A stretch of 64,000 nucleotides of DNA. Source: an uncultured Spirochaetota bacterium (lineage in GTDB: Bacteria; Spirochaetota; Brevinematia; Brevinematales; JAOACQ01). Where the stretch lies: NCBI GenBank assembly GCA_963783575.1, contig CAWAOD010000009.1, positions 128,001 through 192,000 on the forward strand, in the 5' to 3' direction. Positions 1,767 to 51,191 of this stretch are shown here, in pieces; within the stretch, counting starts at the first letter, position 1, and every line of letters begins with the position of its first letter. The position numbers and the translations under genes were made by a program. Below the pieces are notes generated by a model. The model saw only the letters and a program-made list of their open reading frames with translations, searched no databases and had not been told where the DNA came from.

Positions 1767-1895
1767 GTCTAACTCGATATATACGAAGTTCATATATTAC
1801 CCCAAATCCCGGGTATTAAATGAACTTCTTTACCAACTTGCCGGGCAACGGCTTGAAATAATTTCATTATAGCATTTTAATTTGCTGATTGTCAA
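1767..1895 (-). promoter_or_regulatory. Consensus sigma70 promoter plus attI-like core (platform A)
   Basis: TTGACA(1895-1890)-18 nt-TATAAT(1871-1866) with extended TG, then GTTAGAC core at 1773-1767; homologous to 51089-51191. Confidence 0.6.
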
Positions 1896-2051
1896 TCAGG
1901 GTCAGGATAGAATCATAACACCTACCGTTATCGAATTATTATATGGAAAATTCAGAGTTATTTTTGAGTTTAAAATGTTTTTCATATACAATCTCCTGGT
2001 ATTAATTATAAAAATCCATTAGATAATACAAAGAATCTCCGGAGGCTAAAA

Positions 2052-3835
2052 ATGAAAATTATTTTTATATCCATCTTTCTTTTTCTTTCAGTGTCCGTTT
2101 ATTCCGCCGACTGGCCTATATACAAGGGCAACCTTTACTTTACCGGCAATAATGACCAGATCATAGTAAAGAACAATAGCCTGAAGTGGCTTTTTATGGC
2201 ATCCAATTATATCTTTAACCCGGTTGTTTCCGACGGCAAAATCTATTTTTCCGATTTGGATAAAATTGTCTATTCCGTGGATGAAGAAACCGGTAAAATA
2301 AAATGGAAATTGGATTTAAAAGACATATCCAGCCATTTTAGCGGAAATGCAGGAGTTCCCGGAAAAGTTAAATATCCGATCATCAGGGGAAATTCCATTT
2401 TCCTTTCAGATGCCACGGCAATATACTGCCTTGATAAAAATACCGGTAGAGTACTTTGGGCTAGGTCCGGTCTTCAGGAAAACGAAAAATAAACAGCTGT
2501 GATAGACGGTATTTATGCCGACCCTATTCTATCGGGAGATAATCTTTATTATGGCACCAGGAAGAATTTTATCGCACGTGAAATATTTAACGGGCATGTT
2601 ATCTGGTCCAGCCAGGAGATAGAAAGCTATAGCGGATTTCCCACGTATTACGATGATAAAATACTGGCACAGTCCAGGGATTATAAAAACAACTCTTACT
2701 TTGTCCTATGCCTGGACCGGTATACCGGAAAGATTCTTTGGAAGAAACAGATCGATAACCCTCTACAGATATTTTCACCGGTTGTATATCAAGGTAAAGT
2801 TTTTATCCCATCGGGAAAAAAGCTTTACAGCCTTTCTTTAAGTGACGGTTCAATAATCTGGCAGAAGGAGTACGGGGATTATATTACCTCAAACCCAAGC
2901 TTTACAGACAGGGAAGTGCTTCTGACGATCGGGAATCAAAAAATTGCCGTATTAACGCCCGATAACGGTTCCGTCAGCTATGAACTGGATTTCGGAGCCG
3001 GTCCGAACCTTATTATGTGACTGTGAATGATCAGATTTACACTGCTTTTAATTATAATAAAAATATCGGCGGTAAGGATATAACCTTCACATCCGTCAGG
3101 GCTTACACCTTCGGCGACAATAAGCCAATCTGGGAATTTCTGCCGCCTTTCCCCGGCGGCGCATCACAGCCGATTGCCTCCCGCGGTACTTTGTTCATTC
3201 CTGCAGGTAATTATCTTTATGCAATAGGTACTTATTATGAACGGCCGATTGTTTATGGAAATGACGGCAGCTCAATCCTGGAGCCGGAGGCCGGTTCCCC
3301 GGGCAAATCATCATCTTTCGCTGCTGTTCAGGAATCGTCCGGCGGTTCATCAACCTCGTCCCTGCCCTCATCAGGATTGAATGATAATTTTGTAAAAAAC
3401 CCTGTTTCCAGCCAATCCTCTTTCACCGAAAAAGAAAAAGAACTACCGAAAGCTCCGGAAAAGCCTGTGAACCTGGAAGAAACCAAACCTGGTGAAAGTG
3501 TTATAGTTCATAATATTTATTTTGAGTTTGATAAAGCCTATCTCAGGCGTGAGTCCATAGCAACATTGGATGATATTGTCAATCAGCTTAAGAAAAACAC
3601 AGCAATTAAGCTTGAAATCCAGGGACACACCGACAACACTGGAACCGTGGAATATAACAAAAAGCTATCCGATCGCCGGGCCGACGCAGTAATGGAATAT
3701 TTGATTAAGAATGGCATCAGCCCCGAACGGCTCCACTCCATGGGATTCGGCGAAACCAAACCGGTTGCCGATAACAAAACTGAAGAGGGAAGAAGTAAGA
3801 ACAGAAGGACGGAATTTTTGATTCTGGAAAAGTAA
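2052..3835 (+). CDS. Exported PQQ-like beta-propeller (BamB-like) protein with C-terminal OmpA domain; split by an in-frame TAA and a frameshift
   Basis: Signal peptide, repeated TGKI.WK propeller motifs over three ORFs, OmpA_C motifs IYFEFDK / IQGHTD / NRRTE; TAA at 2490-2492 is in frame with 2499; frameshift near 3000. Confidence 0.8.
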
Positions 3836-3952
3836 ACCGCCACCCGGCAGAATATTTCTCATTATTGAGAAAAAATACAATAAACCATCGATTTTTGACG
3901 TGATTCCCAAGAAATGATATTATATTTGATTAAAATAATGGAAGGACAAAAT

Positions 3953-4705
3953 ATGCAACCATTAATCACAGAAAAAGAATACGAAATCCATTACCATGAA
4001 ACGGATTTTAGAAGAAAGGTGTGGATTTATAGATTGATGAATTATTTTGACGATATAGTCCTTGAACAGAGTAATTTAATAGGTTTCGGTCTTGATTTTT
4101 TTGAAAAGAACAGTTTGATCTGGGTTCTATTAAACTGGGATATAAAAATAATAAAATTACCGTCATACCAGGATAAAGTGCTTGTAAGAACCTTTCCGTA
4201 TTCTATGAAAAAATGCTATGGATACAGGAAATATGAGATCAGGAATTCGATTGGAGAAAATATTGTAACTGCCGATACTGCCTGGATATTTCTGGACAGA
4301 AACACCATGCGTCCCTTGAGAGTTCCGGAAAATATTTGTACGGCTTACGGGATTGTTAAGGATGAAGGAGAAAGCCTGGCAATGGATAAAATCAACTCTC
4401 CGGATAGGGATGATATGGAGAAAGATTTTTTTGTGCGATACAGCGATATTGACGGAAACCAGCATGTTAATAATGTCAGCTATGTTGAATGGGCACTGGA
4501 AACGGTGCCCATGGATTTATTGCTGAATTATGATCCTTTAAACATAAAGATCAGTTATAAGAAAGAATCAAAATATGGAGACGCCGTCCGATCAATTTCA
4601 GAAATAAACATTAACGGATCATCTGCGGATTGCCGGCACAAAATTACAGATAAAAACGGCGTCGATTTGTGTTTACTTCAGACCATTTGGGAAAAGTCAG
4701 CTTAA
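3953..4705 (+). CDS. Acyl-ACP thioesterase (FatA family)
   Basis: VRYSDIDGNQHVNNVSY motif, double hotdog layout. Confidence 0.9.
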   Translation: MQPLITEKEYEIHYHETDFRRKVWIYRLMNYFDDIVLEQSNLIGFGLDFFEKNSLIWVLLNWDIKIIKLPSYQDKVLVRTFPYSMKKCYGYRKYEIRNSIGENIVTADTAWIFLDRNTMRPLRVPENICTAYGIVKDEGESLAMDKINSPDRDDMEKDFFVRYSDIDGNQHVNNVSYVEWALETVPMDLLLNYDPLNIKISYKKESKYGDAVRSISEININGSSADCRHKITDKNGVDLCLLQTIWEKSA

Positions 4706-4856
4706 TTTACTAAGTACGTTTATAATGTTCAGCAGAACCTGCCCTGCGGTATCGATAGGCTCAATACCTTTTCAATCAAAAAAAGGATCAAGCGTCACGC
4801 TTGTCAAAATACCTGTTAAAAATTACTTGAGTGCAGTATATAACTTGTCGAAAATA

Positions 4857-4899
4857 TATTAAAAGATAAAAATCATTTCATGATTTTTATCTTTTAATA
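4857..4899. repeat. Perfect 20-bp inverted repeat with 3-nt loop
   Basis: tattaaaagataaaaatcat-ttc-atgatttttatcttttaata. Confidence 0.9.
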
Positions 4900-4971
4900 A
4901 GTAGTTTTGAATAGCGTAAGTTCGGGATAGACAAAACTACACTCTGGTTGGTAAAACCATTGGGGTTAATT

Positions 4972-6006
4972 ATGCGGATTATAAAATGGATCGCATTACT
5001 CTTACTGAATTTTTACCTTTTTAACTTTCTTTTCCCGGCTCCGATTGATCTTAAAAATATCATAACAATCGACGGTTTTCAGGATAATCCAATTCTTGGA
5101 ATGGGAATTGTAACAGGCTTAAAAGGTACCGGGGACGACAAAGGAACACAGACAAAAGAGATTGCCGCAAGAATTTTTAAACATTTCGGATTTAATGTAA
5201 ATCCGGATGATATAAATCCTAAAAATTCTGCAGCAGTATTGGTCAGCGCTGTTGTTTCACCGTCATCTTCGGTAGGTTCCAGACTTGATGTAAAAATATC
5301 CTCTATCTGTAATGCAAAATCTCTTGAAGGCGGCGAATTGATCGTTACACCTCTTTTCGGAGGTGAAAACAGAGAGGATATATATGCGATAGCCCAGGGC
5401 AGCATTATAGTTGATAAAACCTCAAAAGGAGTTACAGGCTACATACCGATGGGCGGAATATTACAAAAGGAAATTGAACATCTAATTGTCAGCAGTAACA
5501 GGGTATTTTCAATTGGAGTTTTAGACACGCTTCATTTTACATCTATAAGCAAAGTAGCCGATGCCATAAGGGCAAAATATCCCGATTCCATAAAATCCAT
5601 AACTCAAAATAAAATCAAATTATCGCTGCCGCCCGATATCGAATTCTTCCAGTTTATCAATGACATTTACCAGTTAAAAGCCGATGTGGAAGACAGTCCC
5701 AGTGTGATAATTGATTCCAAAAAAGGCATAATTGTTTCCGGCGGAAATGTAATTGTAACGGATGCGGCAATTTCTCTCAAAGGAATGAAATTAGTAGTCG
5801 GAAACGGAGGTTCTGCGCCATCCTGGGGTGGAAACGGAGCCTCTCAACAATCCGGGAATAACGTCCAGTACTTTAAAACTACAACAACAGTATCGGATCT
5901 TGTGGATGGGTTGAACAAAACAGGGGCGTCAATCGATGATATGATCGAACTGCTTCAGCTTATGTATAAAAACGGTAATCTGAAAGCAAAATTAATTGTT
6001 TTATAA
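4972..6006 (+). CDS. flgI: Flagellar P-ring protein FlgI
   Basis: NPILGMGIVTGLKGTGD, KNSAAVLV, AKSLEGGEL, C-terminal GNLKAKLIV. Confidence 0.9.
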   Translation: MRIIKWIALLLLNFYLFNFLFPAPIDLKNIITIDGFQDNPILGMGIVTGLKGTGDDKGTQTKEIAARIFKHFGFNVNPDDINPKNSAAVLVSAVVSPSSSVGSRLDVKISSICNAKSLEGGELIVTPLFGGENREDIYAIAQGSIIVDKTSKGVTGYIPMGGILQKEIEHLIVSSNRVFSIGVLDTLHFTSISKVADAIRAKYPDSIKSITQNKIKLSLPPDIEFFQFINDIYQLKADVEDSPSVIIDSKKGIIVSGGNVIVTDAAISLKGMKLVVGNGGSAPSWGGNGASQQSGNNVQYFKTTTTVSDLVDGLNKTGASIDDMIELLQLMYKNGNLKAKLIVL

Positions 6007-6038
6007 AAAAAGGCCGGGCATATTGCCCCGGCCTTTTT
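6005..6038. terminator. Bidirectional intrinsic terminator
   Basis: A-tract, ggccgggc/gccccggcc stem, T-tract between convergent genes. Confidence 0.85.
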
Positions 6039-6056
6039 AATTAAGTAACTAACTAT

Positions 6057-6545
6057 TCACAAATTTTGTAGCTCGTTCAATTTGCTTTGAGCTTCGTCTT
6101 TTAAGGCTTTTGGAGCAGTCGGACTTGTTACGATTTCTTTTAACCGGCTTTGAGCATTATCCCTCGCATTATCTATTAAAGCATTGATATCGGCATCACT
6201 CATTCCTGATTTTACAACTTTCTCCTTGTCGGTATGGATAAATTTTATAACTAGTATATAAGCTTTTGCCGTTTTCAATTTTGTGGAAGAATCGCTTGCA
6301 GTCTTTTCATCATCAAGAGATTCCCTGAGAACAGACATTACATTAGCGAAAGCTGTATCATTCATCCTGTCATATGCGGGTTTCGGAGTTTCCTTTTTTA
6401 CCGTATTTGTAGCCGCGGGCTGCGCAGATGTTTCAGTTTTAACTTCATTCTTTGGCTGAGGTTTAACCTGTTCTTTCGGTCCGCATGAAACAATCAGAAA
6501 CGATGCCGTTATACTTAAAATAGCTAAGGTTAAAATTCTAAACAT
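6057..6545 (-). CDS. Hypothetical lipoprotein
   Basis: Lipobox LIVSC, GGAGG RBS. Confidence 0.75.
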   Translation of the reverse strand: MFRILTLAILSITASFLIVSCGPKEQVKPQPKNEVKTETSAQPAATNTVKKETPKPAYDRMNDTAFANVMSVLRESLDDEKTASDSSTKLKTAKAYILVIKFIHTDKEKVVKSGMSDADINALIDNARDNAQSRLKEIVTSPTAPKALKDEAQSKLNELQNL

Positions 6546-6580
6546 ATAATACCTCCATGATTTAATTGTAATTATTAATA

Positions 6581-7096
6581 TTACCAGTGTATGGCTTCAA
6601 TTGTTTCCCAGGCGGCTTTTACAGTCTGATCCCTGTGATGCCTGTTATCCAGTACAATATTCAGCAGTACCGGGAAGCTTTTTGAGCTGCCGTTTTTCAG
6701 TAAAATTCTTACCAAGCCCTCAGCAATAACATCATCATAATACATAACCTGATCATCTTCCTTAAAATCCGGGTTTGTATAAAAATACTCAAGCAGATTA
6801 TCAATAATATCAATAACCCTGTCATTTGTATAATTATCGCTGAATGATTTTAAGGCCTTCTTTTTATCTTCATAAATACCATTTTTTACTAAAGTCCTAT
6901 AAGCTTTAGCGATCTCATCATCACCGGATAAATTTTTTAATTCATGAGCGGCTTTTGTATTTGATTCATTATCCGTATTAATACCGCTGTTGTCAGTAGA
7001 AGGGCTCTGGCAAAAAGCTGATATATTAAACAAAAAGATGGCACTAATGGGTAGAAATAAAAGTCTAAGAATTAAATTATTGATATTTCTTTTCAT
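6581..7096 (-). CDS. Exported HEAT-repeat-like protein
   Basis: Signal peptide; C-terminus paralogous to 7105..7848 (FPVLL...HRD.TVKA.W...I.W). Confidence 0.65.
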   Translation of the reverse strand: MKRNINNLILRLLFLPISAIFLFNISAFCQSPSTDNSGINTDNESNTKAAHELKNLSGDDEIAKAYRTLVKNGIYEDKKKALKSFSDNYTNDRVIDIIDNLLEYFYTNPDFKEDDQVMYYDDVIAEGLVRILLKNGSSKSFPVLLNIVLDNRHHRDQTVKAAWETIEAIHW

Positions 7097-7104
7097 TTTA
7101 AAAG

Positions 7105-7848
7105 CTACCATTTGATTTTTTTCATTGCATCCCAACCGGCCTTTACCGTATCATCACGATGCTGATCCGGATTCATTACAGTCTGCAGTAGTACCGGAAA
7201 AGCCCTTGGATCGCCTATATCCCCAAGCGTTACAATAATAGCTTCTGCCACTCTGTCATCATCAAAGCGTTTTGTATCCTGTTCGTTAAATTTCGCTCTG
7301 GTTACACCATATTGATTTTTTAATAAATCAAGTAATTTAGGAACGATTAAATTCGCATTGCCCAATATCGGTAATGCCCTAGCCGCAGCGATCCTTGGGT
7401 TCACTGATTCGTCCCTTTCAATCACTGTCAATAGTGTCGGAACAAAATTTGAGTTGGAGCTTTGAGCAATCGCATTTATAGCCATCACCCTGGCGTCAGG
7501 TGAAACTGCAGTGATTTTCTGCGCGGTTTTATTAGCATTCCTTATATCTTCCATTACAATTTCCTGTAATAAATCATATTTCTGCGAAGGAACATTTGTA
7601 ACCTTGGTTATCAACAATACAATTTTAAACTGCGTGTCAAAACTAGCCTGTTTCCCTACTGAATCGTAAAATTCACTTTTCAAAAATGGTAATACTGCAT
7701 CAGGAAGTTTTAATTCTTCCGGAATTGCCTTAATCGGCACATTCGGTCCTAACAGCGCATTTAATGCATCATTATCAGCAGCATAAGCTGAAACAGAGAT
7801 GGCTAATAAGAAGAAACAGACAGACAGCAGCAAATAACTCTTCTTCAT
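7105..7848 (-). CDS. Exported HEAT-repeat protein
   Basis: Signal peptide AYA; HEAT motifs RIAAARALPILG and LGDIGDPRAFPVLL. Confidence 0.75.
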   Translation of the reverse strand: MKKSYLLLSVCFFLLAISVSAYAADNDALNALLGPNVPIKAIPEELKLPDAVLPFLKSEFYDSVGKQASFDTQFKIVLLITKVTNVPSQKYDLLQEIVMEDIRNANKTAQKITAVSPDARVMAINAIAQSSNSNFVPTLLTVIERDESVNPRIAAARALPILGNANLIVPKLLDLLKNQYGVTRAKFNEQDTKRFDDDRVAEAIIVTLGDIGDPRAFPVLLQTVMNPDQHRDDTVKAGWDAMKKIKW

Positions 7849-8097
7849 ATATTACTCCTTATATGAATTTACATTCTCATATATAATCTTAAATAAAGTA
7901 GCGCCATATTTGATTTATTATAAAATAAAAACAATCATAATTAAAGTCAAGATATAAAGTTATAAATACATATTTTAAATTGAATTCAAGTCATTTTAAC
8001 TTAATCTCAACAAATGTCAAGTAAAAAAAGTTAATTTTACCTTATTTTGGCAATGTTAATTTATATAAAGGCAATATCGGAAAATAAATACCCAAAA

Positions 8098-8937
8098 TTA
8101 AATATTTTCCAATTCCATTACGGCCTCATCAACAATCCCATCCGGCGTAGATGCCCCGGCTGTAACACCGATCGTTTTAACTCCCATTAGTAAATTTCTG
8201 TCCAGTTCGGATATTCTTTCGATATGGAAACTGGAAACAATTTCGCTGCATAATTCGAAAAGCCTTTTAGTGTTGGAACTGTTTTTCCCGCCGAGGATTA
8301 TCATTCTTTCAACTTTACCCGCCGTTTCCAGGGCTGAACTTTGACGCCTTCTTGTTGACGGGCAGATGGTATTATGAATATGAACCGACTCACAGTGCCG
8401 TATAAAATGATCGCTAATTTCAAGGAATCTCTTTAAAGACATGGTCGTCTGGGATATCAGGGCACATTTTTCTTTTGGAAAAGCAAATTTATCTGGATTG
8501 AAACTATTATGACCAATAATAGTGACATTTTTTGAAAAATCCTGCGTCGATGCTATTACTTCAGGATGTTCCGGCTCACCTACAAAAAATACGGGAACCT
8601 TATTATCTATTTCCTTTTTTATTATTTTAGAAATATTCCTCACATAAACACAGGTTGCATCTATTACATTGAAACCTTTTCTGACCGCATCATCGATAAC
8701 GCTGTGAGGAAGGCCATGCGCCCTAACAACACCTACACCGCTGCCGATGCCGAATATGGAATCCTTTATTATCACGCCCTTTTTTTTATATTCACAGATG
8801 ATATCCTGGTTATGTATTATTTCGCCGATGGAAAATATCTTTCTGCCCGGATTAGCCTCAATTGCGGCATCCAGCTTGTCCAACGCTATACGGACACCAT
8901 GACAGAAACCGTACTCTTTTGACACTATTACTTTCAT
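8098..8937 (-). CDS. ispH: 4-hydroxy-3-methylbut-2-enyl diphosphate reductase
   Basis: GFCHGV, IIHN, RAHG, DATC, TICPST.RRQ, SSNT, TAGASTP. Confidence 0.97.
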   Translation of the reverse strand: MKVIVSKEYGFCHGVRIALDKLDAAIEANPGRKIFSIGEIIHNQDIICEYKKKGVIIKDSIFGIGSGVGVVRAHGLPHSVIDDAVRKGFNVIDATCVYVRNISKIIKKEIDNKVPVFFVGEPEHPEVIASTQDFSKNVTIIGHNSFNPDKFAFPKEKCALISQTTMSLKRFLEISDHFIRHCESVHIHNTICPSTRRRQSSALETAGKVERMIILGGKNSSNTKRLFELCSEIVSSFHIERISELDRNLLMGVKTIGVTAGASTPDGIVDEAVMELENI

Positions 8938-8949
8938 TATATGCCTTAC

Positions 8950-9798
8950 TTATAACTTTTCCCTGAATTCCTTACTTTTTTTGAGATAATCGACAAGTTC
9001 CTTACGTTTATTATTCCTTATCAGATGGATTAAAGTGTCGATCTCCCTGGAAAAATCAATCAGGGCCCTTTCCACATTATCGGCATTATGTAGAATAATA
9101 TCGGCCCACATATCCGGGTTTGACTGCGCAATTCTTGTAATGTCCAGCAGGCCTTTCCCGTATAAACCGAAAAATCTGACTTCCGACCATCCGTCTTTTT
9201 CAAGGTACCGGGATGTTGCAAATGCTATCAAATGCGGAACATGACTTGTAGAAGCCACTATTTCATCATGAAAATCGGCCGAAACTAAAACAATCTGTGC
9301 TCCAAGAGTTTTCCAGAAATCCCGCACTTCTTCCATGACGCCTTCCTCGGTTTCACCGATTACTGCGACTATTTTTTTCTGGAACAAATCCGCCCTCGCA
9401 TATTCCAGGCCGGACTTTTCACTTCCAGCCATCGGATGCGTGCTGACAAAATGGATGCCCCTGTTATTGATCTTATTAATCCCGGCGATGACCGGCCTTT
9501 TAACGCTCCCGACATCCATAACAATCACATTTTCAGACAAGTTGTTTATATACTTAAAAAATATATCTGAAACCGTCTCAATAGGTGTACCAATTATGAA
9601 AATGTCAAGTTCTCCGACTATTTCGGAATTTTCATCAGCGATTTTATCAATCATCCCAAGTCTTTTTGCCATTTCCAGTTTTTCTTTATCCCGGCCGAAA
9701 CCGATAATTTTAGAACCCGGTATTAAAGCTTTGACCGCAAGAGCTATAGATCCGCCGATTAAACCAAGGCCATATATTCCTACAATTTTTTTATCCAT
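8950..9798 (-). CDS. tyrA: Prephenate/arogenate dehydrogenase
   Basis: GLGLIGGS, DVGSVK, HPMAGSE, HDEIVA..SHVPH. Confidence 0.93.
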   Translation of the reverse strand: MDKKIVGIYGLGLIGGSIALAVKALIPGSKIIGFGRDKEKLEMAKRLGMIDKIADENSEIVGELDIFIIGTPIETVSDIFFKYINNLSENVIVMDVGSVKRPVIAGINKINNRGIHFVSTHPMAGSEKSGLEYARADLFQKKIVAVIGETEEGVMEEVRDFWKTLGAQIVLVSADFHDEIVASTSHVPHLIAFATSRYLEKDGWSEVRFFGLYGKGLLDITRIAQSNPDMWADIILHNADNVERALIDFSREIDTLIHLIRNNKRKELVDYLKKSKEFREKL

Positions 9799-9812
9799 AA
9801 CCGCCCCAAATA

Positions 9813-10841: not shown

Positions 10842-11059
10842 TGGCTCCCCGATTTTCTAAATTATTTCTTAAATAAATTATTATTCTATTACTCAATTCC
10901 AGACTTTTAATAGAACTATAATTATAAAAAATAAAATGAAAAATTACAACAAACGGTTACCCCCGAGTTATGTTTGGTCACAAAACCGAAGATAATATTT
11001 TGTTTTTTTTATAAAATAAACTATAATATTTTGTGGTAAATTTTTTATGGGGTGTATTT

Positions 11060-12967
11060 ATGGCTGTTATTGAAAAAAGCGGATCTTTAAACAAAAAAAA
11101 TGATGCGGGCGAATTCAATATTTATACTATAATCATAGCTTTAATAATACTATTTCTGTCAATCATCCCTTTTATAAGGAATTATAAGTATAATGACATT
11201 CATCTGGCCTGGCTCAATCATGATTATGGTAAAAATCTGATGACCTCAACCGAAGAAGGTTCTGTTTTTATGACCGAGGGCGGTGATAACCAGGTTTTTT
11301 CGACTCTATATTTTATGTATGCCGAAAAACTAAGGCCGGATCTTGCCCCTTATGATCAGAAAGGGAATATTTTTAAGAGAATTTACGGTGATATGAGGTA
11401 TATAGATCCAAAAACCCTTGAAAGGAGAATGCAGCTTGTGGATTCGCACCTCTTCGCGGGAGAAGAGCCTTTTTATGTAAACATCCGTGACAGAGCCGAT
11501 CCATATTTTATACCTTACTGGCAGGGCAGAAGGCCGGTTTATTTGACATGGGAGAGGCCTGAACCCTGGACATTAAGCCTTGGCGTCGGCAGCCCGCCTA
11601 TTATAGGTCAAAAACAAAATTCAATAGAAGATAATTATGGCGATTATTACTATAAAAGATATGGAATAATGTACAAAGTGCAGAATATACAATACGAGCT
11701 TGTGGATTATCTTGAATTAAAAAAGGAAATATCAGTATCCGACGCCGAGTCGCAGCTTTCTTCATGGCTGCACAGGACTGTCGATTTAAAGTTCACAATC
11801 GATAAAATAAATGAAATGGTTCGTGAAGGTTATCTAAGGCTGGCGGGAGACAGGGTAATATTCATAAAAATGTATGATCCGCCGCATAAAGGCGACTATT
11901 TTGACAAATTCCTGCTGCGCTGGCACGATGCACCCAACGCCATGTACTGGGATGTTCTTACAAGGGAAATAATTATAAATTATGATTATCAAATGGGTGA
12001 AATATACAGGGGAAAGGTAGGCGAACTCCAGGATATTAAGAGCAGGGAAAAAAGACCCGAAATTCTTGCCGAAATTGATAAAAGGATTAAAGAAAATTGG
12101 ACACTGGCTAAAAGCTTTTATAACGACTCCCTTATATATGGGTTTGACTCAATATCAACACTTCATAACCTTGCTGTGGTATATATGAGAAACGGCCTTG
12201 AAAACCTCGATGAAAAAGCACGGGAACTTCTTACTAGAGCCTTAACTCTATACGCAAACTCCTGGGGAACCTATTCACTGATGTTCAGCCTTCTAATCAA
12301 CGATATGTTCAAAAACCCGGCCGATGAATCCAGGAATATGAAGGAAATCGACATGTGGATGAACCAGCTTAAAGTTAATTTAACACATTACCGCTCTGCA
12401 GGCGGTGATTATACAAAAAACAGCGTTTGGGGAAACTTCTCAGGTTTGGATAATTTTATCAACCAGCTCAGACAGGTCCCTTTATCTCAGCTTAACGGCA
12501 TGGTCGATGAACTTTCCAGGCAGATCAAAGTTTCACCTAAAAATATAGATAATAACCTTAGCCAGCAGGCTTTAACCCTTCTCTACTCCAGGGGCATTCC
12601 ATTCGGATACCAGCCATATATTAAAAAAGCCGATGAATTATTAGATCAGTTGTTAATGATAAAAAAAGACGACCAGAATTTTATTATTTGGGCTTTCAGT
12701 ATCTGCCTTCAGATACAAAAGCTGGATAAAGCTTATGAAATAGGCAAAGATATGGAAAGATTAAATAAGGATATCCCCGATCCTTCATTTTATTATTCGA
12801 TGGGAATGATAAGCTATAATCTTAAGAAACCGGTTGATACGGTAACTTATCTTAATAAATTCCTGGACAAAATAAAAACAGACAGAAAAGCACAGATTCA
12901 ATTGAGAGAACCGGTACAGAATGCTAATAATGTACTGTCACAGTTAAAAAAAGCGGGGTTAAAATAA
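11060..12967 (+). CDS. Membrane-anchored protein resembling the C-terminal part of DUF2723/TMEM260-like glycosyltransferases, with TPR-like tail (copy 1)
   Basis: One TM helix, then HDYGKNLM...VFMTEGGDNQVFSTLY...RPDL; helical C-terminus. Confidence 0.6.
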   Translation: MAVIEKSGSLNKKNDAGEFNIYTIIIALIILFLSIIPFIRNYKYNDIHLAWLNHDYGKNLMTSTEEGSVFMTEGGDNQVFSTLYFMYAEKLRPDLAPYDQKGNIFKRIYGDMRYIDPKTLERRMQLVDSHLFAGEEPFYVNIRDRADPYFIPYWQGRRPVYLTWERPEPWTLSLGVGSPPIIGQKQNSIEDNYGDYYYKRYGIMYKVQNIQYELVDYLELKKEISVSDAESQLSSWLHRTVDLKFTIDKINEMVREGYLRLAGDRVIFIKMYDPPHKGDYFDKFLLRWHDAPNAMYWDVLTREIIINYDYQMGEIYRGKVGELQDIKSREKRPEILAEIDKRIKENWTLAKSFYNDSLIYGFDSISTLHNLAVVYMRNGLENLDEKARELLTRALTLYANSWGTYSLMFSLLINDMFKNPADESRNMKEIDMWMNQLKVNLTHYRSAGGDYTKNSVWGNFSGLDNFINQLRQVPLSQLNGMVDELSRQIKVSPKNIDNNLSQQALTLLYSRGIPFGYQPYIKKADELLDQLLMIKKDDQNFIIWAFSICLQIQKLDKAYEIGKDMERLNKDIPDPSFYYSMGMISYNLKKPVDTVTYLNKFLDKIKTDRKAQIQLREPVQNANNVLSQLKKAGLK

Positions 12968-13001
12968 ATATTCTATAATAAATTTTAGATAGGGAGCGTT
13001 T

Positions 13002-14917
13002 ATGAATATTATAGAAAAAAACAGGTCCCTGAACAAAAAAGATGACGCCGGTGAAATCAATATTTAACTATAATTATAGGTGTAGTGATACTAATCCTTT
13101 CGATCATTCCTTTCATAAGGAATTATAAGTATAATGACATCCATCTGAACTGGGTTACTCATGATTATGGTAAAAACCTTATGTCATCAACCGAGGAAGA
13201 CTCTGTTTTTATGACCGAAGGTGATGATAACCAGGTTTTTTCGACGCTTTATTTTATGTATGCCGAAAAACTCAGACCTGATCTTACTCCTTACGATCAG
13301 ATGGGGAATATTTTTAAACTGATCTATGGCGATATCAGGGTTGTAGGCCAGCTTTACCCTCAAATAGTCAGTCCCAGAAAAAAGCTTGTGGATTCTCACC
13401 TTTTTGCCGGTGAAGAGCCTTTTTATAAGGACCCCCGGGATAATGCCGATCCCTATTTTATTCCTTACTGGGAGGGCAGAAAACCTGTATACCTCACATG
13501 GGAAAGGCCGGATCCCTGGAGCCTAAGCCTTGGAACAGGCAATCCTCCCGTTACCGTTCAACAGCAAAATTCAATTGAAGATAATTACGGTGATTATTAT
13601 TACAAAAGATATGGAATTATGTATAAAGTGCAGAATATTCAGTATGAACTTGTGGATTATCTTAAGTTAAAAAAGGAAATATCAATTTCCGATGCGCAAT
13701 CTCAACTTTCAGCATGGCTGCATCATTCTGTCGGCTTAAAGTTCACCCTTGAAAAAATACAAGAAATGACAAAGCAAGGGTATCTAAGCCTGGAAGGAGA
13801 CAGGGTAATTTTCATAAAAATGTATGATCAGCCCCATAATGGCGATTATTTTGAAAAATTTCCCCTGCGTTGGCATGATGCACCCAACGCTAAATACTGG
13901 GATATGATGACAAGGGGAATAATCAGCAATTATGATTTTCAGATGGGCGAACTTTACAGGCAGAAAATCAACGAATTGCAGGATATAAAAAGCCGGGAAA
14001 AAAGACCGGAGATTCTTACCGGGATTGATAAAAGTATTAAAGAAAACTGGGCGCTTGCAAAAAGTTTTTATGACGACGCCCTTATATATGGTTATGATTC
14101 CATATTCATTCTGAATAATCTGGCCCTGGCATATATGAGGAACGGTCTGGAAAACCTCGATGATAAAGCCAGGGAGCTTCTTACCAGGGCATTGAAATTT
14201 TACACAAATTCATGGGGAACCTATCCATTGATGTTCAGCCTACTTATAAACGAAATTTTTAAAAACCCGGCCAATGAATCGGTGAACATGAAGGAAATCG
14301 ACATGTGGATGAACCAGCTTAAATCTACCCTTACCCACTACCGTTCTTCGGGCGATGATTATACAAAAAACAGCAACTGGGGGAACTTCACCGGTTTGGA
14401 TAATTTTATCAATCAATTAAAACAGGTCCCATTATCACAGCTTAACGGCATGGTTGACGAACTTTCCAGGCAGATAAAAGTTTCGCCAATGAATATAGAC
14501 AACTACCTGAGTCAGCAGGCTTTAGCCCTCCTCTATTCCAGAGGAATCCAATTCGGCTACCAGCCATATATTAAAAAAGCCGATGATTTATTTAACCAGT
14601 TATTACTAATAAAAAAAGACGATCAGAATTTTATTATCTGGGCTTTCAGCATCTGCCTACAGATGCAGAAATTGGACAAAGCTTATGAAATAGGCAAAGA
14701 TTTGGAAAAAGTTAATTCGGAAATTCCCGACCCTTCTTTTTATTATACGATGGGAATGATTAGCTATAATAATAAAAGAAAGGCAGACACATTATTATAT
14801 CTTGATAAATTCCTGGATAAAATCAAAACCGTCAGAAAAGCTCAGATCCAATTGAGAGAACCGATACAGAATGCCAACAATGTCCTGTCACAGTTAAAAA
14901 ACCCTGATTTAAAATAA
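13002..14917 (+). CDS. Tandem paralog of 11060..12967 (copy 2), 1-nt deletion near 13067
   Basis: Colinear high similarity; ATG 13002 (MNIIEKNRSLNKKDDAGEINI) matches the copy 1 N-terminus, but tat-act has become ta-act. Confidence 0.75.
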
Positions 14918-22469: not shown

Positions 22470-22515
22470 CTGGCCTGCCTACGCCGGTATCTCCGGCAGG
22501 TAGACGGCAGACAGG
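22470..22515. repeat. 46-bp GC-rich REP-like palindrome (copy 1)
   Basis: 44/46 identical to 35775-35820. Confidence 0.9.
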
Positions 22516-34267: not shown

Positions 34268-35833
34268 ATGGAAGATAGGCATTCTTTACTTGGCAATGAA
34301 AGCATAACCAGGCTCATTGTAAAATTTTCAATCCCGGCGGTCGCAGGGATGACCGTCACCGCACTTTATAACGTTATCGACAGGATATTTGTAGGACGGG
34401 GGGTTGGATCCGACGCCTTATCTGGCGTTGTGCTGACCTTTCCGATTATGATGATCATACTGGGATTTTCGCTTTTAATTTCCGTTGGAACGGCTTCAAT
34501 GGTTTCTATAAAATTAGGTCAGAAAAAGAAAGACGAGGCGGAGGATATTATCGGTAATGCTTTTGCCCTGTCCATGGCATTGGGAATCATCCTGTCGGCG
34601 GTTTGCCTGGTATTTATGAAGCCGGTACTCATTGCTTTTGGCGGTGAAGGAACTCCTCTCCTTTATGCCGAGCAGTTTATGCAGGTAGCGCTTTTTTCGA
34701 TTGTCTTCCAGATGATCGGTTTTACATTGAACGGAGCTATCCGTTCCGAAGGAAACGCGATGATTGCATTATTGACTTTAGTAATAGGGAATGCCATCAA
34801 CCTGATTTTGAACCCATTATTCATATTTGTCCTGCACCTTGGAGTTAGAGGTTCTTCCCTTGCCACACTTATATCCCAGATTGTAACTTCAGCCTGGACA
34901 TTCTTCTATTTTGCAAATAAAAAAAGCCTGCTGCGTCTCAGGATAAGGAACCTCCGGCTCAAACCCATTATCTTGAAGGAAATCCTGTCCATAGGACTTG
35001 CGCCATTTATTTTACAAAATGCTTTAAGCCTGATGTTGATCATATCGAACATTGTATTTAAGAAATTTGGAAATGGAGAAGGCCTTGCGGTTGTCGGAAT
35101 AATTATGGTAATCAGTATGCTGTTTAACCAGGTAGTTACAGGCATGCAGCGTGGAATTCAGCCTATTATAGGCTATAATTACGGGGCAAAAAATTTTACA
35201 CGGGTAAAAAAGACAATGGAACTCTCCATTATAATCACTACAATGATATGTTCCATCGGTTTTATTCCCATATTCTTTTTCAGCCGCGAAATCATATCTT
35301 TATTTACTGAACAAAGAACAGTTTTATCATTATTTGGCCCTCCGGGGCTGAAATATGCTCTTATAACCCTCCCTCTCCTCGGTTTTTTGACAATAGGGAG
35401 CGGCTATTTTACATCCGTAGGGAAATTTAAGCAGGCTCTATTTATTATTATAATCCGCCAGGCGGCCATTATAATTCTGCTGTTGATTCTTCCCGGATAT
35501 TTCGGTTTTTATGGCGGTATAACCGCATATCCTCTGGCAGATTTAATAACAACCGCCATAACAGCTCTTATGATGGCTATTGAATGGAGAAATCTCAAAG
35601 TAAACAGCGATAATACAGAAAAGCAAGAGAAAATGACCATTAATAAAGTATTCTCAAGGCAGCGCCTTGAGATATTAAAGTCAGAACAACTGGAAGCATC
35701 TTCTAGTGGAAAAGCAGCAGAGCTATACGAAACTTTGTTGCGTAAGGAATCTACGCCTGGGACAAGCAGCCTGCCTGGCCTGCCTACGCCGGGATTTCCG
35801 GCAGGTAGACGGCAGACAGGTCACGCTTGTTAA
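34268..35833 (+). CDS. MATE efflux transporter (MepA-like)
   Basis: LYNVIDRIFVG, RSEG, QPIIGYNYGA; C-terminal tail reads through a REP-like repeat. Confidence 0.92.
   Translation: MEDRHSLLGNESITRLIVKFSIPAVAGMTVTALYNVIDRIFVGRGVGSDALSGVVLTFPIMMIILGFSLLISVGTASMVSIKLGQKKKDEAEDIIGNAFALSMALGIILSAVCLVFMKPVLIAFGGEGTPLLYAEQFMQVALFSIVFQMIGFTLNGAIRSEGNAMIALLTLVIGNAINLILNPLFIFVLHLGVRGSSLATLISQIVTSAWTFFYFANKKSLLRLRIRNLRLKPIILKEILSIGLAPFILQNALSLMLIISNIVFKKFGNGEGLAVVGIIMVISMLFNQVVTGMQRGIQPIIGYNYGAKNFTRVKKTMELSIIITTMICSIGFIPIFFFSREIISLFTEQRTVLSLFGPPGLKYALITLPLLGFLTIGSGYFTSVGKFKQALFIIIIRQAAIIILLLILPGYFGFYGGITAYPLADLITTAITALMMAIEWRNLKVNSDNTEKQEKMTINKVFSRQRLEILKSEQLEASSSGKAAELYETLLRKESTPGTSSLPGLPTPGFPAGRRQTGHAC
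35775..35820. repeat. 46-bp REP-like palindrome (copy 2)
   Basis: ctggcctgcctacgccgggatttccggcaggtagacggcagacagg. Confidence 0.9.
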
Positions 35834-42219: not shown

Positions 42220-42885
42220 TTGACAAGAATATTAAAGGAACCGGAAGAAAGACGGACGGAAATCCTTGATTCAGCCGAGGAATTATTCCAGATTAAAGGT
42301 TATGAAGCAGCCACAACGGGCGATATTATAAAAAAAGCCGGAATCGCACGCGGCACTTTATATTATTATTTCAAATCCAAAGACGAGATTATGGATGCGG
42401 TGATTGAAAGAAGAATTGAACGGCAGATTCAGAATTTGAAGACAATTATCAACGGACAAAAAATAAACGCTCTTGAAAAGATCAAAAAAGTCCTTTATCA
42501 AAACAGTATAATAAACAATGAAAACGAGGAAATGCTGGATTATCTCCACCAGCCAGAAAACAGCGCCATGCATCAAAAAACACTTGTTGCAGCTGTCAGA
42601 AATTCCGCGCCGGTTCTTGCGGAGATAATAAACCAGGGGAATTCCGAAAAAATATTTCAAGCCGGGTATCCGCTTGAACTGGCTGAGTTTTTACTGGCGG
42701 GGATGAATTTTCTGTTCGATCCTTCAATTTTTCAATGGAGCCGGGAAGAATACATAAAAAGAATGCACACTCTTGCGGATATTCTGGAAAAGGTTCTGGG
42801 GGCGGAAAAAGGCAGCTTTGATTTTATGAAATCATTTGCTGAAAAAGAAGGCTCACAATACAGGAATAAAAAGGAAAGGGACTAA
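42220..42885 (+). CDS. TetR family regulator
   Basis: GIARGTLYYYFKSKDE; paralog of 33601. Confidence 0.93.
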   Translation: MTRILKEPEERRTEILDSAEELFQIKGYEAATTGDIIKKAGIARGTLYYYFKSKDEIMDAVIERRIERQIQNLKTIINGQKINALEKIKKVLYQNSIINNENEEMLDYLHQPENSAMHQKTLVAAVRNSAPVLAEIINQGNSEKIFQAGYPLELAEFLLAGMNFLFDPSIFQWSREEYIKRMHTLADILEKVLGAEKGSFDFMKSFAEKEGSQYRNKKERD

Positions 42886-42909
42886 TAAAATCGTGTAAGG
42901 AGTTTTGAT

Positions 42910-43680: not shown

Positions 43681-43887
43681 TACTGTCAAACTATAATACA
43701 AATTAATAATTGACAAAGATACTATATCAAGAATAGGAAAATTATATGAAAGTACTGGTCGTTGGTGCTGGTGTAATAGGTTCAATCTACGGATGGGCAC
43801 TTTCAGAAGCCGGTCATTCCGTAACACATTTAGTGCGCCCGGGTAGATCTAAGTTATTTACAAATGGTATTTCAATTGATATGATGG

Positions 43888-45903
<2,016 letters not shown>

Positions 45904-46881
45904 ACAGGCGGAAAGGCCATAAAAAATGGTTTACAGGGAATTACAATATCCGGTTAATGGAAAATCTTAATTCAAAAAATGATTATGAATTAGTGATTGT
46001 CCCGGTTAGACATTATTCAATTGAAGATGTTTTGAAACAAATAGTTCCGCTGATTCCAAACACAGGTTATCTATTATTAACTCAAAATTGGAAAGGCAGT
46101 TCCGAAATAGATAAATTTTTACCGGCAGATAAATATATTTTTGGTGATGCTAAAGCCGGTGGCTCTTTCCGGAACAATAAATTAATTGCAACAATTTATG
46201 CGATTGATATTGGCAGTATTGATAACAATGAAAACAATTGTTTAAGAAAAGCATATGATTTGTTTTTATCCGCAGATATAAAGACGACTATACAGGATAA
46301 TATATTACATTATCTTTGGGTTCAATATGCAATTAATGGAGGAGAGTGGCCGGCACTTGTAAAGGAAGGCAGCATAAAAGCGCTATTAAAGAATCCTCAA
46401 CTTGTAAAAGCCTCAATTTTAGCTGTGAGAGAATGTCTTACAGTTGCAAAATCCCGAAAGGTTGATCTAAATAAATATAATGAAACAGATTTTTATTTAA
46501 CTAATTCAATTATTAAACAAGTCATCGTGACAATAGCAATGAAAATCATATTTCGTTACAGCAAATATATTCAAAGAAATTCTGCACATGCTATGGCTGA
46601 TCCCAGGGAAATAAAGACTTTCTATTATGATTTGATTAAGACAGGAGATGATCTTGGAATAAATATGCCGGTTATGAAAAGTTTTAAAGAAGTTATTGAT
46701 AATTTAAAATCAACATAACCTGGTTCTCCCTCATAACAAACTGTCTTCGAATAAAAAATAAAAATTTTATCCGGTAGAAAATGGTATCATCCTTTTTCTG
46801 TCATGAACCAAATTATACCGTCAAAATAATTGTATTGATTTTAGATAATATCAAAAGTTTTATGAACCATAAGGAGATTAT

Positions 46882-47825
46882 ATGAAAGTTCTCATTGTCG
46901 GCAAGGGAATAATAGGAACAATTTACGGCTGGGCACTCCATAAGGCCGGGGTTGATATTACTCATTTTGTCAGAAAAGGCAAAGCTGAGCAATTTAAAGA
47001 AGGTATGAAAATAGACATCCTTGATGAAAGAAAAGGCTATCCGAAATATCAAAAGACAGTTTACCCGGCCCGCTGTATCGAAACTATTGAAATCCCCGGA
47101 CAATATGACCTGGTTTTTGTTCCGGTTAATGCCTATCAGGCCGAAGACGCTCTTAAAGAAACCTCGGAACTATGTCAAGATGCCTTCTTTTTTATTATGA
47201 CTTCCAATTGGACAGGTGCAGAGAAATTCAACAGAATCCCTGGAAATGGCAGGTATATTCTTGGTTACCCCGATGCGGGAGGCGCTATCCGGGACGGAGT
47301 TTATTGGACGAACATCGGCCCGGAAATCCACATCGCAAAACCGGAACCGCAAAACAAAGAGGGCGTAGAACAAATAGCCGCATTATTTCAAAAAGCAAAT
47401 ATAAAACCCGACTGGCAGGACAATATGCTTCACTGGCTCTGGGTTCACAATGCATCGTCTCAAGCGATCTGGGCGGCATTTACAAAATACAAAAACCGTG
47501 ACCGTTTTCTTGAAGACAAAAACTTGCTTAAGAAATCTTTCCTGGCAACACGGGAATTGCTTAAGCTTTGTGAAAAAAGGGGAGTTATTTTGAAAAACTA
47601 TCCGGATGTTTCGATGCTTCTGCATTTACCGCTATGGCTTATCATTTCATTTTTGTAAGAAACTTCCTCACCAATGAAAGCATGCAGAGATACACAAGCC
47701 ATGCCGAGAATGCCCCGGTTGAGGATTTAAATAAATTCTACACGGAGATGATTCAAACCGCTGAAGAACTGCATGTCAATATGCCGGTATTTCTCGAAAT
47801 CGGGAAAAATGGCGGATTTATATGA
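46882..47825 (+). CDS. Second PanE/ApbA-family protein, frameshifted near 47650
   Basis: MKVLIVGKGIIG; colinear with the intron-interrupted paralog; C-terminus in ORF 47634..47825. Confidence 0.82.
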
Positions 47826-48097
47826 AATAGGCTAGTCTTGTAAAATAGTTACAAAAATTAATTACAGAGAGTATATATTTTATTGTTTAAGAATTCTCTA
47901 TTGATTTTTTTCATAGATTGAATTAAAATCTCAGATATTATGTTATATAACATATTAATATGAAATAATTTTAATCTTCGATGAAATACCGAATGAACTT
48001 AAAAGTTCTGGTATTATTGTCTCTCCTTTCCCTTTAATTTTAGATACTTGTTTTGAATATATGAAATTAAATCATACTTTTTCGTAGGAGGTATTAT

Positions 48098-48445
48098 ATG
48101 AGTGATAGAGTAAAATGGGAGGTTTTTAATGGCGTAAAATATTTGTTTACAGATTATTCTGCTTTAGAAAAAGAGGGTATTTCCAAAATAATGGAAGAAG
48201 CTGAATCAGAAATAATAAAACAGCCTATTAACTCCGTTCGGATAATAAGTCTTGTTAATAATTCTTTTTTTAATGATGAAATTAAGAATTTAGCAAGTAA
48301 ATATGCCCAAAAAATAAAACCATATATATTTAAAACAGCAGCAGTAGGTTTTACCGGCTTTAAGACAATAATACTAAAAGTAATAAGTCCAGCGGCAAAA
48401 ACATTTGTGACTCTCGATGATGCAAAAAAATGGATTACAGAATAA
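48098..48445 (+). CDS. STAS/SEC14-like small protein
   Basis: KTAAVGFTG...TFVTLDDAKKWI; AGGAGG RBS. Confidence 0.6.
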   Translation: MSDRVKWEVFNGVKYLFTDYSALEKEGISKIMEEAESEIIKQPINSVRIISLVNNSFFNDEIKNLASKYAQKIKPYIFKTAAVGFTGFKTIILKVISPAAKTFVTLDDAKKWITE

Positions 48446-48460
48446 CAACTATTGAGAATA

Positions 48461-48822
48461 ATGGGGGCTTATGTAGACCTGGTTAAAGCCATTGGTGAAG
48501 TTTATACAGAAGGGAAGAAACAATAGATATATACCTAATTTACTCGATTAATAAATAATGTAATGACCGGAATAGCAGATTTCCATATTCCTATTTCCGA
48601 AGATCCAAGTGTCCCTGTTTAAAATTTAAAACAATTCACAGGTCTTTAATGAAAGAATTTAATGATGCGATTATGATACAGAAGGGATCTAATGGTAATA
48701 AAGTCGATAAAATTCTTTCTGAATCTATAATAAAATTAAAAAAATCAGGAAAACTCCAGGTATTATTTTCAAAAATTCACAAGCCTTATGACAATTGGCA
48801 GCCATCTGAAATGGGTTGGTAA
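48461..48822 (+). pseudogene. Remnant of a periplasmic substrate-binding protein gene
   Basis: Fragments GAYVDLVKAI, GIADFHIP and KLKKSGKLQVLFSKI in broken frames. Confidence 0.5.
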
Positions 48823-49401
48823 TATCTGATATGGGATTTAATATTATCAGTTAGAAACCCCATAGATAATTTTCACCGTCTTGAGTAAGAATAACGCAAT
48901 CGTCAGCCCTCTTTGTAACGAATCCTTTTGATACAAGTGAATCCAGAATATTCTTCAATTCACTGTAATTTCCGGAACTCATAAATTTTTAATATTTGTA
49001 TCAACAAAGACGGACTGAATCATGACACAATCATCGGTAACTACTCTATAATGCCGGAATATTTCCATAAACTCTTTTTCACCGCTGGATAAACTATACG
49101 CCATATTTCCCCCAAAATTTCATTTATTGATAATTGGTTATTAAATCTATATTTATTTTCTGAAATATTTATTTCACTCCAGCCATATGACCAGATGTAA
49201 AATATTAATAAAAACCATGACAATAAAAGACTTTTTTTGAGAAACCATAAATATATCTCCTCAAATTTATATTCAAAAAGGATAGTTTATTTAATTAAAT
49301 TTTATCCGCTGAGCATATTTTTGTCAAAAGCATATTAATTTTTTGACAAATAATTTTTAGTTATATAGAATTTATTAAATCAAATTTTAAGGATTTTATA
49401 T

Positions 49402-49580
49402 ATGTTCATTGCGGATAGACTTGAAACCATAACAGCTACATTGAAGCAGACATTCAAGTGTCAATTTAAATGGTGCAGCCTGTTTGCAGTGCATTATATT
49501 TTATGATAAACATATAAAATATGATAAAAAGCCCGCAGGTTGAGTCTGCATAAAGCAGATGACGCCCGCGGGCTTTTTTT
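49402..49580 (+). promoter_or_regulatory. Candidate leader ORF plus terminator upstream of asd
   Basis: 34-codon ORF 49402-49506, then aaaaagcccgc...gcgggcttttttt (49526-49580). Confidence 0.5.
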
Positions 49581-49607
49581 GTTTTTATTCAAATAAAGGA
49601 GGAATTT

Positions 49608-50681
49608 ATGGGATTAAAAGTTGGCTTAGTCGGTGTCGGCCCTGTCGGCGACATGATTGTACGGGTGCTGAAAGAAAGAAGCTTCCCGGTAGACGGAGAT
49701 CTTGTTGTTATGGCCACAAGTGAAAGGGATGAGATTCTTTCGGGTGAAAATTACCATGTCCTAAAAATCAAAGCGGATTTATTTAAAGGATTGGATCTGG
49801 TATTTTTCGCAGGGAAGGAAGGCGCCAAAGGCGCCAGCGTAGTGTGGAGTAAAACTGCGGTCAATTCCGGATGTACGGTAATCGATAACGGAGGCGATTT
49901 CAGAATGTTTCCGGGTTATCCGCTGGTCATTCCCGAAGTGAATATGGATGCCATAACCGCGGAAACCAGGCACATCTGCAATCCGAACTGCTCAACCATC
50001 CAGCTGGCGGTCGCTTTAGCCCCTCTTCACAGGGCTTCCAGGCTTTTCAGGATTGTTGTTTCAACTTATCAATCGGTCAGCGGCTGGGGCGGAAACGCAA
50101 TGGAAGAGCTGATAAAACAAACCGGGCAGGTTCTGGCGGGGAAAGAACCAAAGTATGACCCTTCCATTTTTAATCATCCTATAGCTTTCGACTGTATCCC
50201 GCAGGTCGATAAGTTTCTGGAAAATGGCTATAATAAAGAAGAAATGAAAATGGTCAATGAAACCAGGAAGATCCTAAATGAACCGAACCTTCTGATCAGT
50301 GCTACTACCGTCAGAGTACCGGTGCTAGTCGGCCATGGAGAATCGGTCAATGCAGAATTCATGGGGGAGATGACCGCGCAGAAGGCAATGTATATTCTTG
50401 CCGATAAAAAACAATCCCCCGGTGTAGTTTTAATCGACGGAATTACCGGAGACCCCGATGCCGTTCAAATCCGCAAAGATCCGCTGGAAAGGAGATATCC
50501 TATAACCAGGGACTTGCTGTCGGATGAATACAAGGACGCCGTTTTAGTGGGCCGCGTCCGGAATGATACGACCAGGGCTAATACCATTAATTTCTGGTGC
50601 GTATCCGACAACCTGAGAAAAGGTGCGGCGACAAACGCAATTCAGATAGCGGAAGGAATGCTGGAAAGAGGGATTTTATAA
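49608..50681 (+). CDS. asd: Aspartate-semialdehyde dehydrogenase
   Basis: PEVN, NPNCSTIQ, STYQSVSG, VRVPV..GH, DNLRKGAATNAIQI. Confidence 0.95.
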   Translation: MGLKVGLVGVGPVGDMIVRVLKERSFPVDGDLVVMATSERDEILSGENYHVLKIKADLFKGLDLVFFAGKEGAKGASVVWSKTAVNSGCTVIDNGGDFRMFPGYPLVIPEVNMDAITAETRHICNPNCSTIQLAVALAPLHRASRLFRIVVSTYQSVSGWGGNAMEELIKQTGQVLAGKEPKYDPSIFNHPIAFDCIPQVDKFLENGYNKEEMKMVNETRKILNEPNLLISATTVRVPVLVGHGESVNAEFMGEMTAQKAMYILADKKQSPGVVLIDGITGDPDAVQIRKDPLERRYPITRDLLSDEYKDAVLVGRVRNDTTRANTINFWCVSDNLRKGAATNAIQIAEGMLERGIL

Positions 50682-50762
50682 TAAATTCTTGGATCAAGAA
50701 GTGTAATAAACAATTCATCAAACAGTTTATGCTGTTGCCGTAAAGCCACTACAATGTGGCTT

Positions 50763-51027
50763 TCGCACCTTCGCATTAACGCCATTTCATGTCAAGCAGT
50801 CTTTAAGTACTGAAGTGTTGTTATTCCAATGTATTTAACGATTAATTTAAAGAAAAGAGCCTCACTTTGCAATCCTGCTGCGTTCGGGTCGCAGCCCTCC
50901 CTGGCTGCGAAATTATAATTGTTCAGATTATTTTCAAAGGGGAATAATAACGATTTTTTAATACCAAGATTCCTTTAAAATCAAATAAAGGCTCAATCAG
51001 AAATGGCGCTAATGCTGCGGGGTGCGA
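50763..51027. repeat. Non-coding element with terminal inverted repeats (MITE-like)
   Basis: tcgcaccttcgcattaacgccatttc versus gaaatggcgctaatgctgcggggtgcga; central hairpin 50889-50910. Confidence 0.6.
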
Positions 51028-51088
51028 TTAAGCAGGCTGGTTACAGATTGGATGGATTGTTTTAAAAACCAAATGTTAAAAAGCCAGA

Positions 51089-51191
51089 TTGACAAGCAAT
51101 ATTTATAAATGTTATAATGGAATTATTTCAGTCCGTTGGTTGGTAAGACTATAAAAGAAATCCTGAAATTCGCTGTATATTTGGGTTATAT
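51089..51191 (+). promoter_or_regulatory. Consensus sigma70 promoter plus attI-like core (platform B)
   Basis: TTGACA(51089)-18 nt-TATAAT(51113) with extended TG; GTTATAT at 51185; homologous to 1767-1895. Confidence 0.6.

Follow-up and report, generated by a model that had tools for sequence, protein, structure and literature searches.

Promoter and attI-like platforms dispersed in the genome of an uncultured Spirochaetota bacterium, probably truncated integron-like heads loaded in trans

The window analysed here is the whole stretch of 64,000 nucleotides from an uncultured Spirochaetota bacterium (GenBank assembly GCA_963783575.1, contig CAWAOD010000009.1, positions 128,001 to 192,000; G000:C9:128001-192000 in our notation, where G000 is the source genome and C a contig). 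It contains two units, P1 (minus strand, approximately 1767-1895) and P2 (plus strand, approximately 51089-51217), each made of a promoter and an integron attI-like site and each heading an array of gene cassettes. The G000 assembly has a completeness of 89.85% and was analysed together with the other members of a set of 43 genomes of the class, itself included, 11 of which are family relatives (among them G004, G005, G008, G009 and G011); four FlaA matches over the cut-off agree with its spirochaete label.

The features of P1, all on the minus strand, include a perfect Pc-like promoter (TTGACA-N18-TATAAT, 1866-1895; -35 box at 1895-1890, -10 box at 1871-1866), a short conserved motif downstream of the -10 box (CCG-TTGNY-CGG, 1840-1852) with a possible 4-bp hairpin, and an attI-like site (1767-1830; core GTTAGAC at 1773-1767, crossover GTT at 1773-1771) that is 34/45 identical to the recombinase-linked attI of the same genome (G000:C5:458248). 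The first cassette (586-1685) carries two overlapping AT-rich open reading frames (ORFs; 139 and 227 amino acids, aa) with no Pfam or PADLOC family. Its attC-like site (259-555; R'' at 555-549, R' GTT at 265-263) contains an insert of about 100 bp adjoining R'' (approximately 446-545), with inverted-repeat-like ends and two related pieces on C16 and C4. The start of the second cassette (1-264) encodes a toxin-antitoxin-like pair whose antitoxin matches CopG, and the array runs on past the window edge, broken by multi-copy insertion sequence (IS) elements.

P2, on the plus strand, is preceded by a dispersed intergenic repeat (50763-51050; about 40 blastn matches in the genome), and includes a perfect TTGACA-N18-TATAAT promoter with an extended -10 TG (51089-51118; -35 box at 51089-51094, -10 box at 51113-51118), a copy of the short motif past the -10 box (51132-51144) and a degenerate attI-like site (51143-51217; core GTT at 51211-51213) that is 29/47 identical to the C5 attI. 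The first cassette gene (51246-52139) encodes a GIY-YIG/DUF4357 protein assigned by PADLOC to the candidate defence family PDC-S14 (E 5e-96). The attC-like site that follows (52142-52365) is decayed: its R' GTT is lost (ATT instead) and its L-box stem is degraded. The second cassette (52461-53618) carries a 219-aa ORF that matches no Pfam family, together with a gene for a 164-aa sigma-70 region 2/4 protein, and the last attC of the array is truncated just after its R'' by a mosaic hairpin repeat, repeat B (53609-53909, minus strand).

From the -35 box to the GTT, both units measure 125 nt and are colinear (85/126 identical positions), and the 25 nt past the -10 box share 19 positions; at the 108 other perfect TTGACA-N16-19-TATAAT sites of the genome, used as control promoters, the number is 6.2 on average and 13 at most. 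The ORFs behind both units are co-oriented and AT-rich (GC content 0.22-0.28), and the two arrays have in common a long, attC-like repeat with arms 77-80% complementary, damaged in both. No PF00589 match was found in the window or near P1 or P2. An earlier reading of the letters alone (the sequence-only reading) had described two units homologous beyond the promoter, followed by co-oriented AT-rich genes and a common long repeat and lacking an adjacent tyrosine recombinase, and on all these points it holds. The core that it had proposed for P2, GTTATAT at 51185-51191, was ruled out: it aligns with an inner box of P1, and both the attI model and the P1 spacing pick the homologous GTT at 51211-51213. 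P1 and P2 belong to the decayed platforms of the genome.

Searching the genome for the promoter motif, as the sequence-only reading had proposed, returned 14 copies of the module on five contigs (nhmmer profile, E<=4e-5; next best match 0.44), and the exact pattern recovered 12 of these, compared to none in the reversed control. An attI-like junction lies within 450 nt downstream of 12 of the 14 copies, compared to 3 of the 108 control promoters, these three representing other kinds of head (a compact pair on C16, and another module family on C12/C13). At a score of at least 17, the attI matrix gave 24 matches in the genome and none in its reversed version; 12 of the 24 were outside the training set, which included 11 of the 12 module-linked ends. 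Identity of the ends behind modules to the C5 site ranges from 27/49 to 44/45, the highest value corresponding to two solo sites (C9:382288 and C5:114975). The DNA behind the modules is AT-rich (GC<=0.30 in 11 of 14; median for the other promoters, 0.37) and its genes are unrelated (GmrSD/HNH, HEPN, ParE/Phd and CopG-type pairs, besides the PDC-S14 candidate behind P2). The promoter pattern was absent from the 42 other class genomes and from the metagenome contigs searched (0 matches), and P1 DNA gave no meaningful match in 40 relatives, with one weak 26-nt match in a G003 coding region; the module looks lineage-specific within what was searched. In Rfam, the module, attI, attC and repeat B matched no family, the sole scoring match being a tRNA beside one module.

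Several variants accompany this family. A CGTTG-centred motif lies 11-16 nt past the -10 box in all 14 modules, with a 3-4 bp hairpin possible in most and weak covariation. At G000:C15:196812-196980 the attI-like junction behind the module lies on the other strand. The two compact units of C16 (33509-32449, minus strand) are 1 kb apart, each with a perfect TTGACA-N17-TATAAT 49-58 nt before an attI-like GTT, and the gene between them has no attC. The second, unrelated module family (C12:17097 and C13:202368, both plus strand) heads AT-rich arrays, and one copy ends in an attI-like GTT. Sites resembling attI also occur within arrays, in the manner of delta-attI cassettes (G000 C13:208480, C13:214029 and C12:18576; G004, L110 near 8496), and one G004 array contains a full promoter-attI unit.

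Over 13 junctions, the columns are strongly conserved as far as the GTT and less so beyond it, save for a common R' pattern, which is the arrangement of an integron attI, conserved upstream and variable downstream of a GTT crossover. The cassette heads complement the R'' of their own cassette, with a score of 62 compared to 40.0±4.7 in shuffled pairings (p~1e-5, permutation); this set comprises 12 of the 13 junctions (C9:531752, followed by an IS, was omitted), the starts of the first attC being placed by eye from the attC body. Cassettes with complementary R' and R'' and hairpin attC sites with an L-box stem, as in integrons, are present in the genome, those of P1 and P2 themselves being degenerate.

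Usual attC sites are about 57-141 bp long and have extrahelical bases. The main attC family of this genome is about 270 bp long (31 full or partial genome matches). In the folds of its bottom strand (z -2.4 to -2.8; each made from a single sequence), R and L form the outer stems, and extrahelical bases were not evident. Other attC families retain complementary L-box arms of differing sequence, and many attC are split by IS copies. The 3' ends of the platforms differ from attC in the GC content of their last 60 nt (0.23-0.35 compared to 0.40-0.65) and in their L-box complement (0-7/9 compared to 6-9/9); they are attI-like and not attC sites. G000 has undergone a heavy recent IS expansion (one 1.5-kb element, for example, is present in 31 near-identical copies, and two others in 13 each), and in many attC the IS copies are inserted at the same R'' position.

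One of the 15 PF00589 matches of G000 (C5:457.1-458.2 kb) directly precedes an attI and a co-oriented long attC array. The other 14 were rejected as the enzyme (they include two XerC/D-like proteins, paired recombinases on C5 and C15 and a C11 fragment; none adjoins an attI), so that an integrase adjoining attI is found only at G000:C5:458248 and in relatives, P1, P2 and the other modules having none. The best family of the C5 recombinase is NF040815 (site-specific tyrosine recombinase/integron integrase); TIGR02249 stays below its cut-off, as in all 43 class genomes. P0001, a near full-length homologue encoded in G011, aligns with VchIntIA (2A3V) in two stretches and has 24 residues where 2A3V has 66, being about 42 residues shorter at this point, and therefore the insert of about 35 residues specific to IntI is absent. 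The best structural matches of the predicted P0001 model (predicted local distance difference test score, pLDDT, 88) are 2A3V and the archaeal XerA (4A8E, 5HXY). An N-terminal domain of about 70 residues, with no counterpart in the aligned 2A3V and XerA chains, gave a weak HARP match in 37 of 118 homologues, Pfam being the only source of this likeness; speculatively, it might recognise hairpin junctions. Judged by sequence, the enzyme is not a canonical IntI and would be a short recombinase intermediate between Xer and IntI. The distant integrase supposed by the sequence-only reading was found in part: there is one distant recombinase with an attI near-identical to solo sites; it is no TIGR02249 IntI, and its only copy found in G000 carries two frameshifts.

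Among 39 core orthologues of G000, three contained frameshifts, five in all over 41 kb (Poisson P(>=2)=0.007), and these cluster (three in one gene), leaving assembly error possible for the C5 gene. Four of five multi-copy IS families have few gaps (two in 47 kb in the largest), IS21 copies having more, and the sequencing run that was mapped covered 162 nt of DNA, neither frameshift position among them. The C5 gene is likelier a real pseudogene than an assembly error.

The relatives provide the evidence on loading in trans. In G011, one 585-bp cassette (99.3% identical) lies GTT to GTT behind both a recombinase-linked attI (C2:46.6 kb) and a solo attI (C2:2028 kb), two sites about 2 Mb apart whose left arms and next cassettes differ; the 4 kb that precede the solo site gave no integrase match. 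The C5 array of G000 and the solo array at C9:382 kb have a 2638-bp block in common (99.85%), which starts at an attC crossover and is weaker evidence. Cassettes common to solo and integrase-linked sites support service in trans. The attI model matched 6 of the 11 family relatives, and a solo attI with a first cassette ending in a 9/10 complement is present in four of the 11 (G004, G005, G008 and G011). G004 carries two such cognate solo sites, one of them inside an array; the site of G009 falls at the end of a contig; and in G008, which has a solo site, no recombinase match was obtained at E<=1e-40. Recombinase and attI are co-oriented in G011, G005, G004 and G002, and the C5 attC gave short blastn matches alone, in two of five relatives. 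Three near-identical recombinase copies in G011 (L052, L058 and L059, on C6, C7 and C1) have the same upstream DNA, and the first cassettes differ between C6 and C7; the copies may represent strain variation in the assembly.

The recombinase gene is transcribed towards its own attI, which lies wholly outside the gene and is thus detachable. The last 30 or so recombinase codons were found between promoter and attI in two long-spacer modules, C13:218936 and C4:27263 (iE 8e-6 and 9e-6 with a profile of the 118 homologues; best reversed control 0.96), and none at the other 16 solo heads tested with the same profile; by eye, the stub is nearer the G005 gene end than the C5 gene end. From the position of these stubs it follows that the attI came from the 3' flank of a recombinase gene, and truncation of integrons is a likelier source of the platforms than formation de novo. 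G004 and G011 have a promoter between the recombinase stop and the attI (at -111 and -109), and at the G004 solo sites it lies at -112, near the 125-nt spacing of P1 and P2.

Repeat B directly precedes 9 of the 14 modules, compared to none of the 108 other promoters (six of these nine copies were used to train its model), and most of its 33 genome matches have no module. The upstream DNA common to modules is up to 89% similar and runs into repeat B with variable borders, which fit duplication or conversion better than an element with fixed ends. No platform was found at the P1 position in the five relatives checked, nor at the P2 position in G006, the one close asd orthologue examined. The asd gene (window 49608-50681, beside P2) and the PQQ-repeat gene (2052, beside P1) lie close to each other in G006, which is not the case in G003, G008, G010 or G011, and for this reason a rearrangement model was not drawn from their adjacency. 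The PQQ-repeat gene is split into three ORFs in the window (2052-3835), being a single frame of 559-662 aa in relatives, by assembly error or as a pseudogene.

The published systems closest to this one differ from it in several respects. The Treponema-type integron (PMC3607928) also belongs to a spirochaete and has a recombinase co-oriented with its array, an attI right after the gene, a GTTRRRY crossover and cassettes ending in hairpin attC; in the present system the recombinase has no IntI insert and an extra N-terminal domain, the main attC is about 270 bp long, and a dozen or more promoter-attI heads have no recombinase gene, whereas one attI per integron is stated in that source. Clusters of attC lacking an integrase (CALIN) and single attC lacking an integrase (SALIN), together with attG insertion (PMC4889954, 10.1101/2022.09.11.507474), likewise place cassettes and attC far from an integrase, and mobilisation of distant cassettes in trans is accepted (PMC9668308, 10.1101/2025.06.18.660453). 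The arrays described here are attC clusters with no neighbouring integrase, but each is also headed by a homologous promoter and attI, which are not attG, whereas CALIN and SALIN are defined by attC only. The delta-attI-type cassettes of class 1/2 integrons (PMC12901181) and the promoter cassettes of Vibrio superintegrons (10.1101/2023.11.21.568050) are extra attI pieces or promoters off the primary platform, as are the attI-like sites inside arrays reported above; those lie inside arrays, whereas here promoter and attI are joined, head separate arrays and have no attC end. Neither dispersed promoter-attI platforms nor this recombinase family as a cassette integrase was found described in the literature searched, supplements apart; in the supplements of PMC4889954, 21 integrases without the insert are listed close to attC, which could be relevant to how new the system is.

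Taken together, we consider it probable that P1 and P2, as members of the 14-copy family, are truncated integron-like heads that were multiplied round the chromosome and loaded in trans by a distant recombinase. An integron-like head would have lost its recombinase gene, promoter and attI remaining; the modules would have spread by duplication or recombination along with dispersed intergenic repeats; the short recombinase would use any of these sites as the attI partner of a folded attC; and the module promoter would express the first cassette. The system would now be largely fossil in G000, because the recombinase is frameshifted, many attC are IS-broken and P1 and P2 have decayed; its current activity is doubtful and it is probably mostly inactive. 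We hold more tentatively, at somewhat less than even chances, the wider proposal of a distributed network in which one insert-less, HARP-domain recombinase serves 12 to about 20 promoter-equipped attI, providing many first-position slots, with the promoter-attI head as a non-autonomous unit from a deleted integron. The distributed integron of the sequence-only reading agrees with the 14 modules, their 12 attI-like ends, the cassette junctions and the distant recombinase, and its satellite pads served in trans agree with the G011 cassette; it has to be amended as regards the enzyme, non-canonical and frameshifted in its sole G000 copy, and the two platforms that are truncated heads.

A number of observations weigh against the reading of truncated heads loaded in trans. 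Head and R'' agree weakly at P1 (2/7), C5:359002 (3/7), C9:632869 (3/7) and P2 (4/7); two of the 14 modules have no co-oriented attI; and only two carry an integrase stub. The 2638-bp block of G000 has its end within an IS, past which the attC bodies differ, and IS-mediated copying could explain it. No promoter module was found near the integrase at any locus scanned, so that the idea of the module as the recombinase's own promoter is unsupported. The frameshifted C5 gene is the only copy of its family found in G000, and recombinases with no IntI insert have been judged not to be integron integrases (PMC4889954).

An unlikely alternative is that each platform started as a full integron, or as a copy of such an integron, that its own recombinase loaded in cis; the recombinase was then deleted, and the solo site has been inert since. 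The two stubs, the presence of at least two attI lineages behind the same promoter, the IS-broken attC and the frameshifted recombinase fit such a history; 12 of the 14 modules have no stub, the upstream repeat DNA that the modules have in common points to duplication of an integrase-less unit, and the G011 cassette stands first behind a solo attI with no integrase match over 4 kb upstream. We regard as improbable that the modules are gene-less promoter or delta-attI cassettes which the recombinase inserted at secondary sites, seeding arrays. Such cassettes are already published, and the attI-like sites inside the G000 arrays and the promoter-attI unit of the G004 array resemble them; the modules, however, neither start at a GTT crossover nor end in an attC, their AT-rich 3' site with its poor L-box complement matches the recombinase-adjacent site, and they have no common 5' GTT boundary, upstream similarity extending over varying lengths into repeat B. 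There is very little to be said for the modules as ordinary pieces of mosaic intergenic repeats, with the AT-rich genes behind them being chance or IS-driven insertions: repeat B mostly occurs away from modules and the arrays are full of IS copies, but against it stand the exact GTT junctions, sites almost identical to the recombinase-linked one and the recurrence of this geometry in relatives, and the complementarity of each head to its own cassette largely refutes it.

Two further features of the window were noted: a 46-nt GC-rich direct repeat (22470-22515 and 35775-35820, 96% identical) and a set of tandem paralogous genes (11025-14917; DNA identity 75-83%, spacing about 1950 nt).

In integron theory there is one platform per integrase and one cassette beside the promoter, distant arrays being seen as remnants or as random insertions at attG. 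Distant arrays headed by homologous promoter-attI units would add a third way in which arrays without an integrase originate, and the stubs would show how solo heads arise. Standard tools would miss such heads, because their attI searches are limited to classes 1-3 and they recognise the integrase by an insert absent from this enzyme (PMC4889954). G011, in which the enzyme is intact and a single cassette occupies a linked as well as a solo site, offers a test pair that bears on the need for the IntI insert. If the reading of truncated heads loaded in trans is right, gene capture, here of cassettes that include candidate anti-phage and toxin-antitoxin genes, would need no recombinase gene next door.

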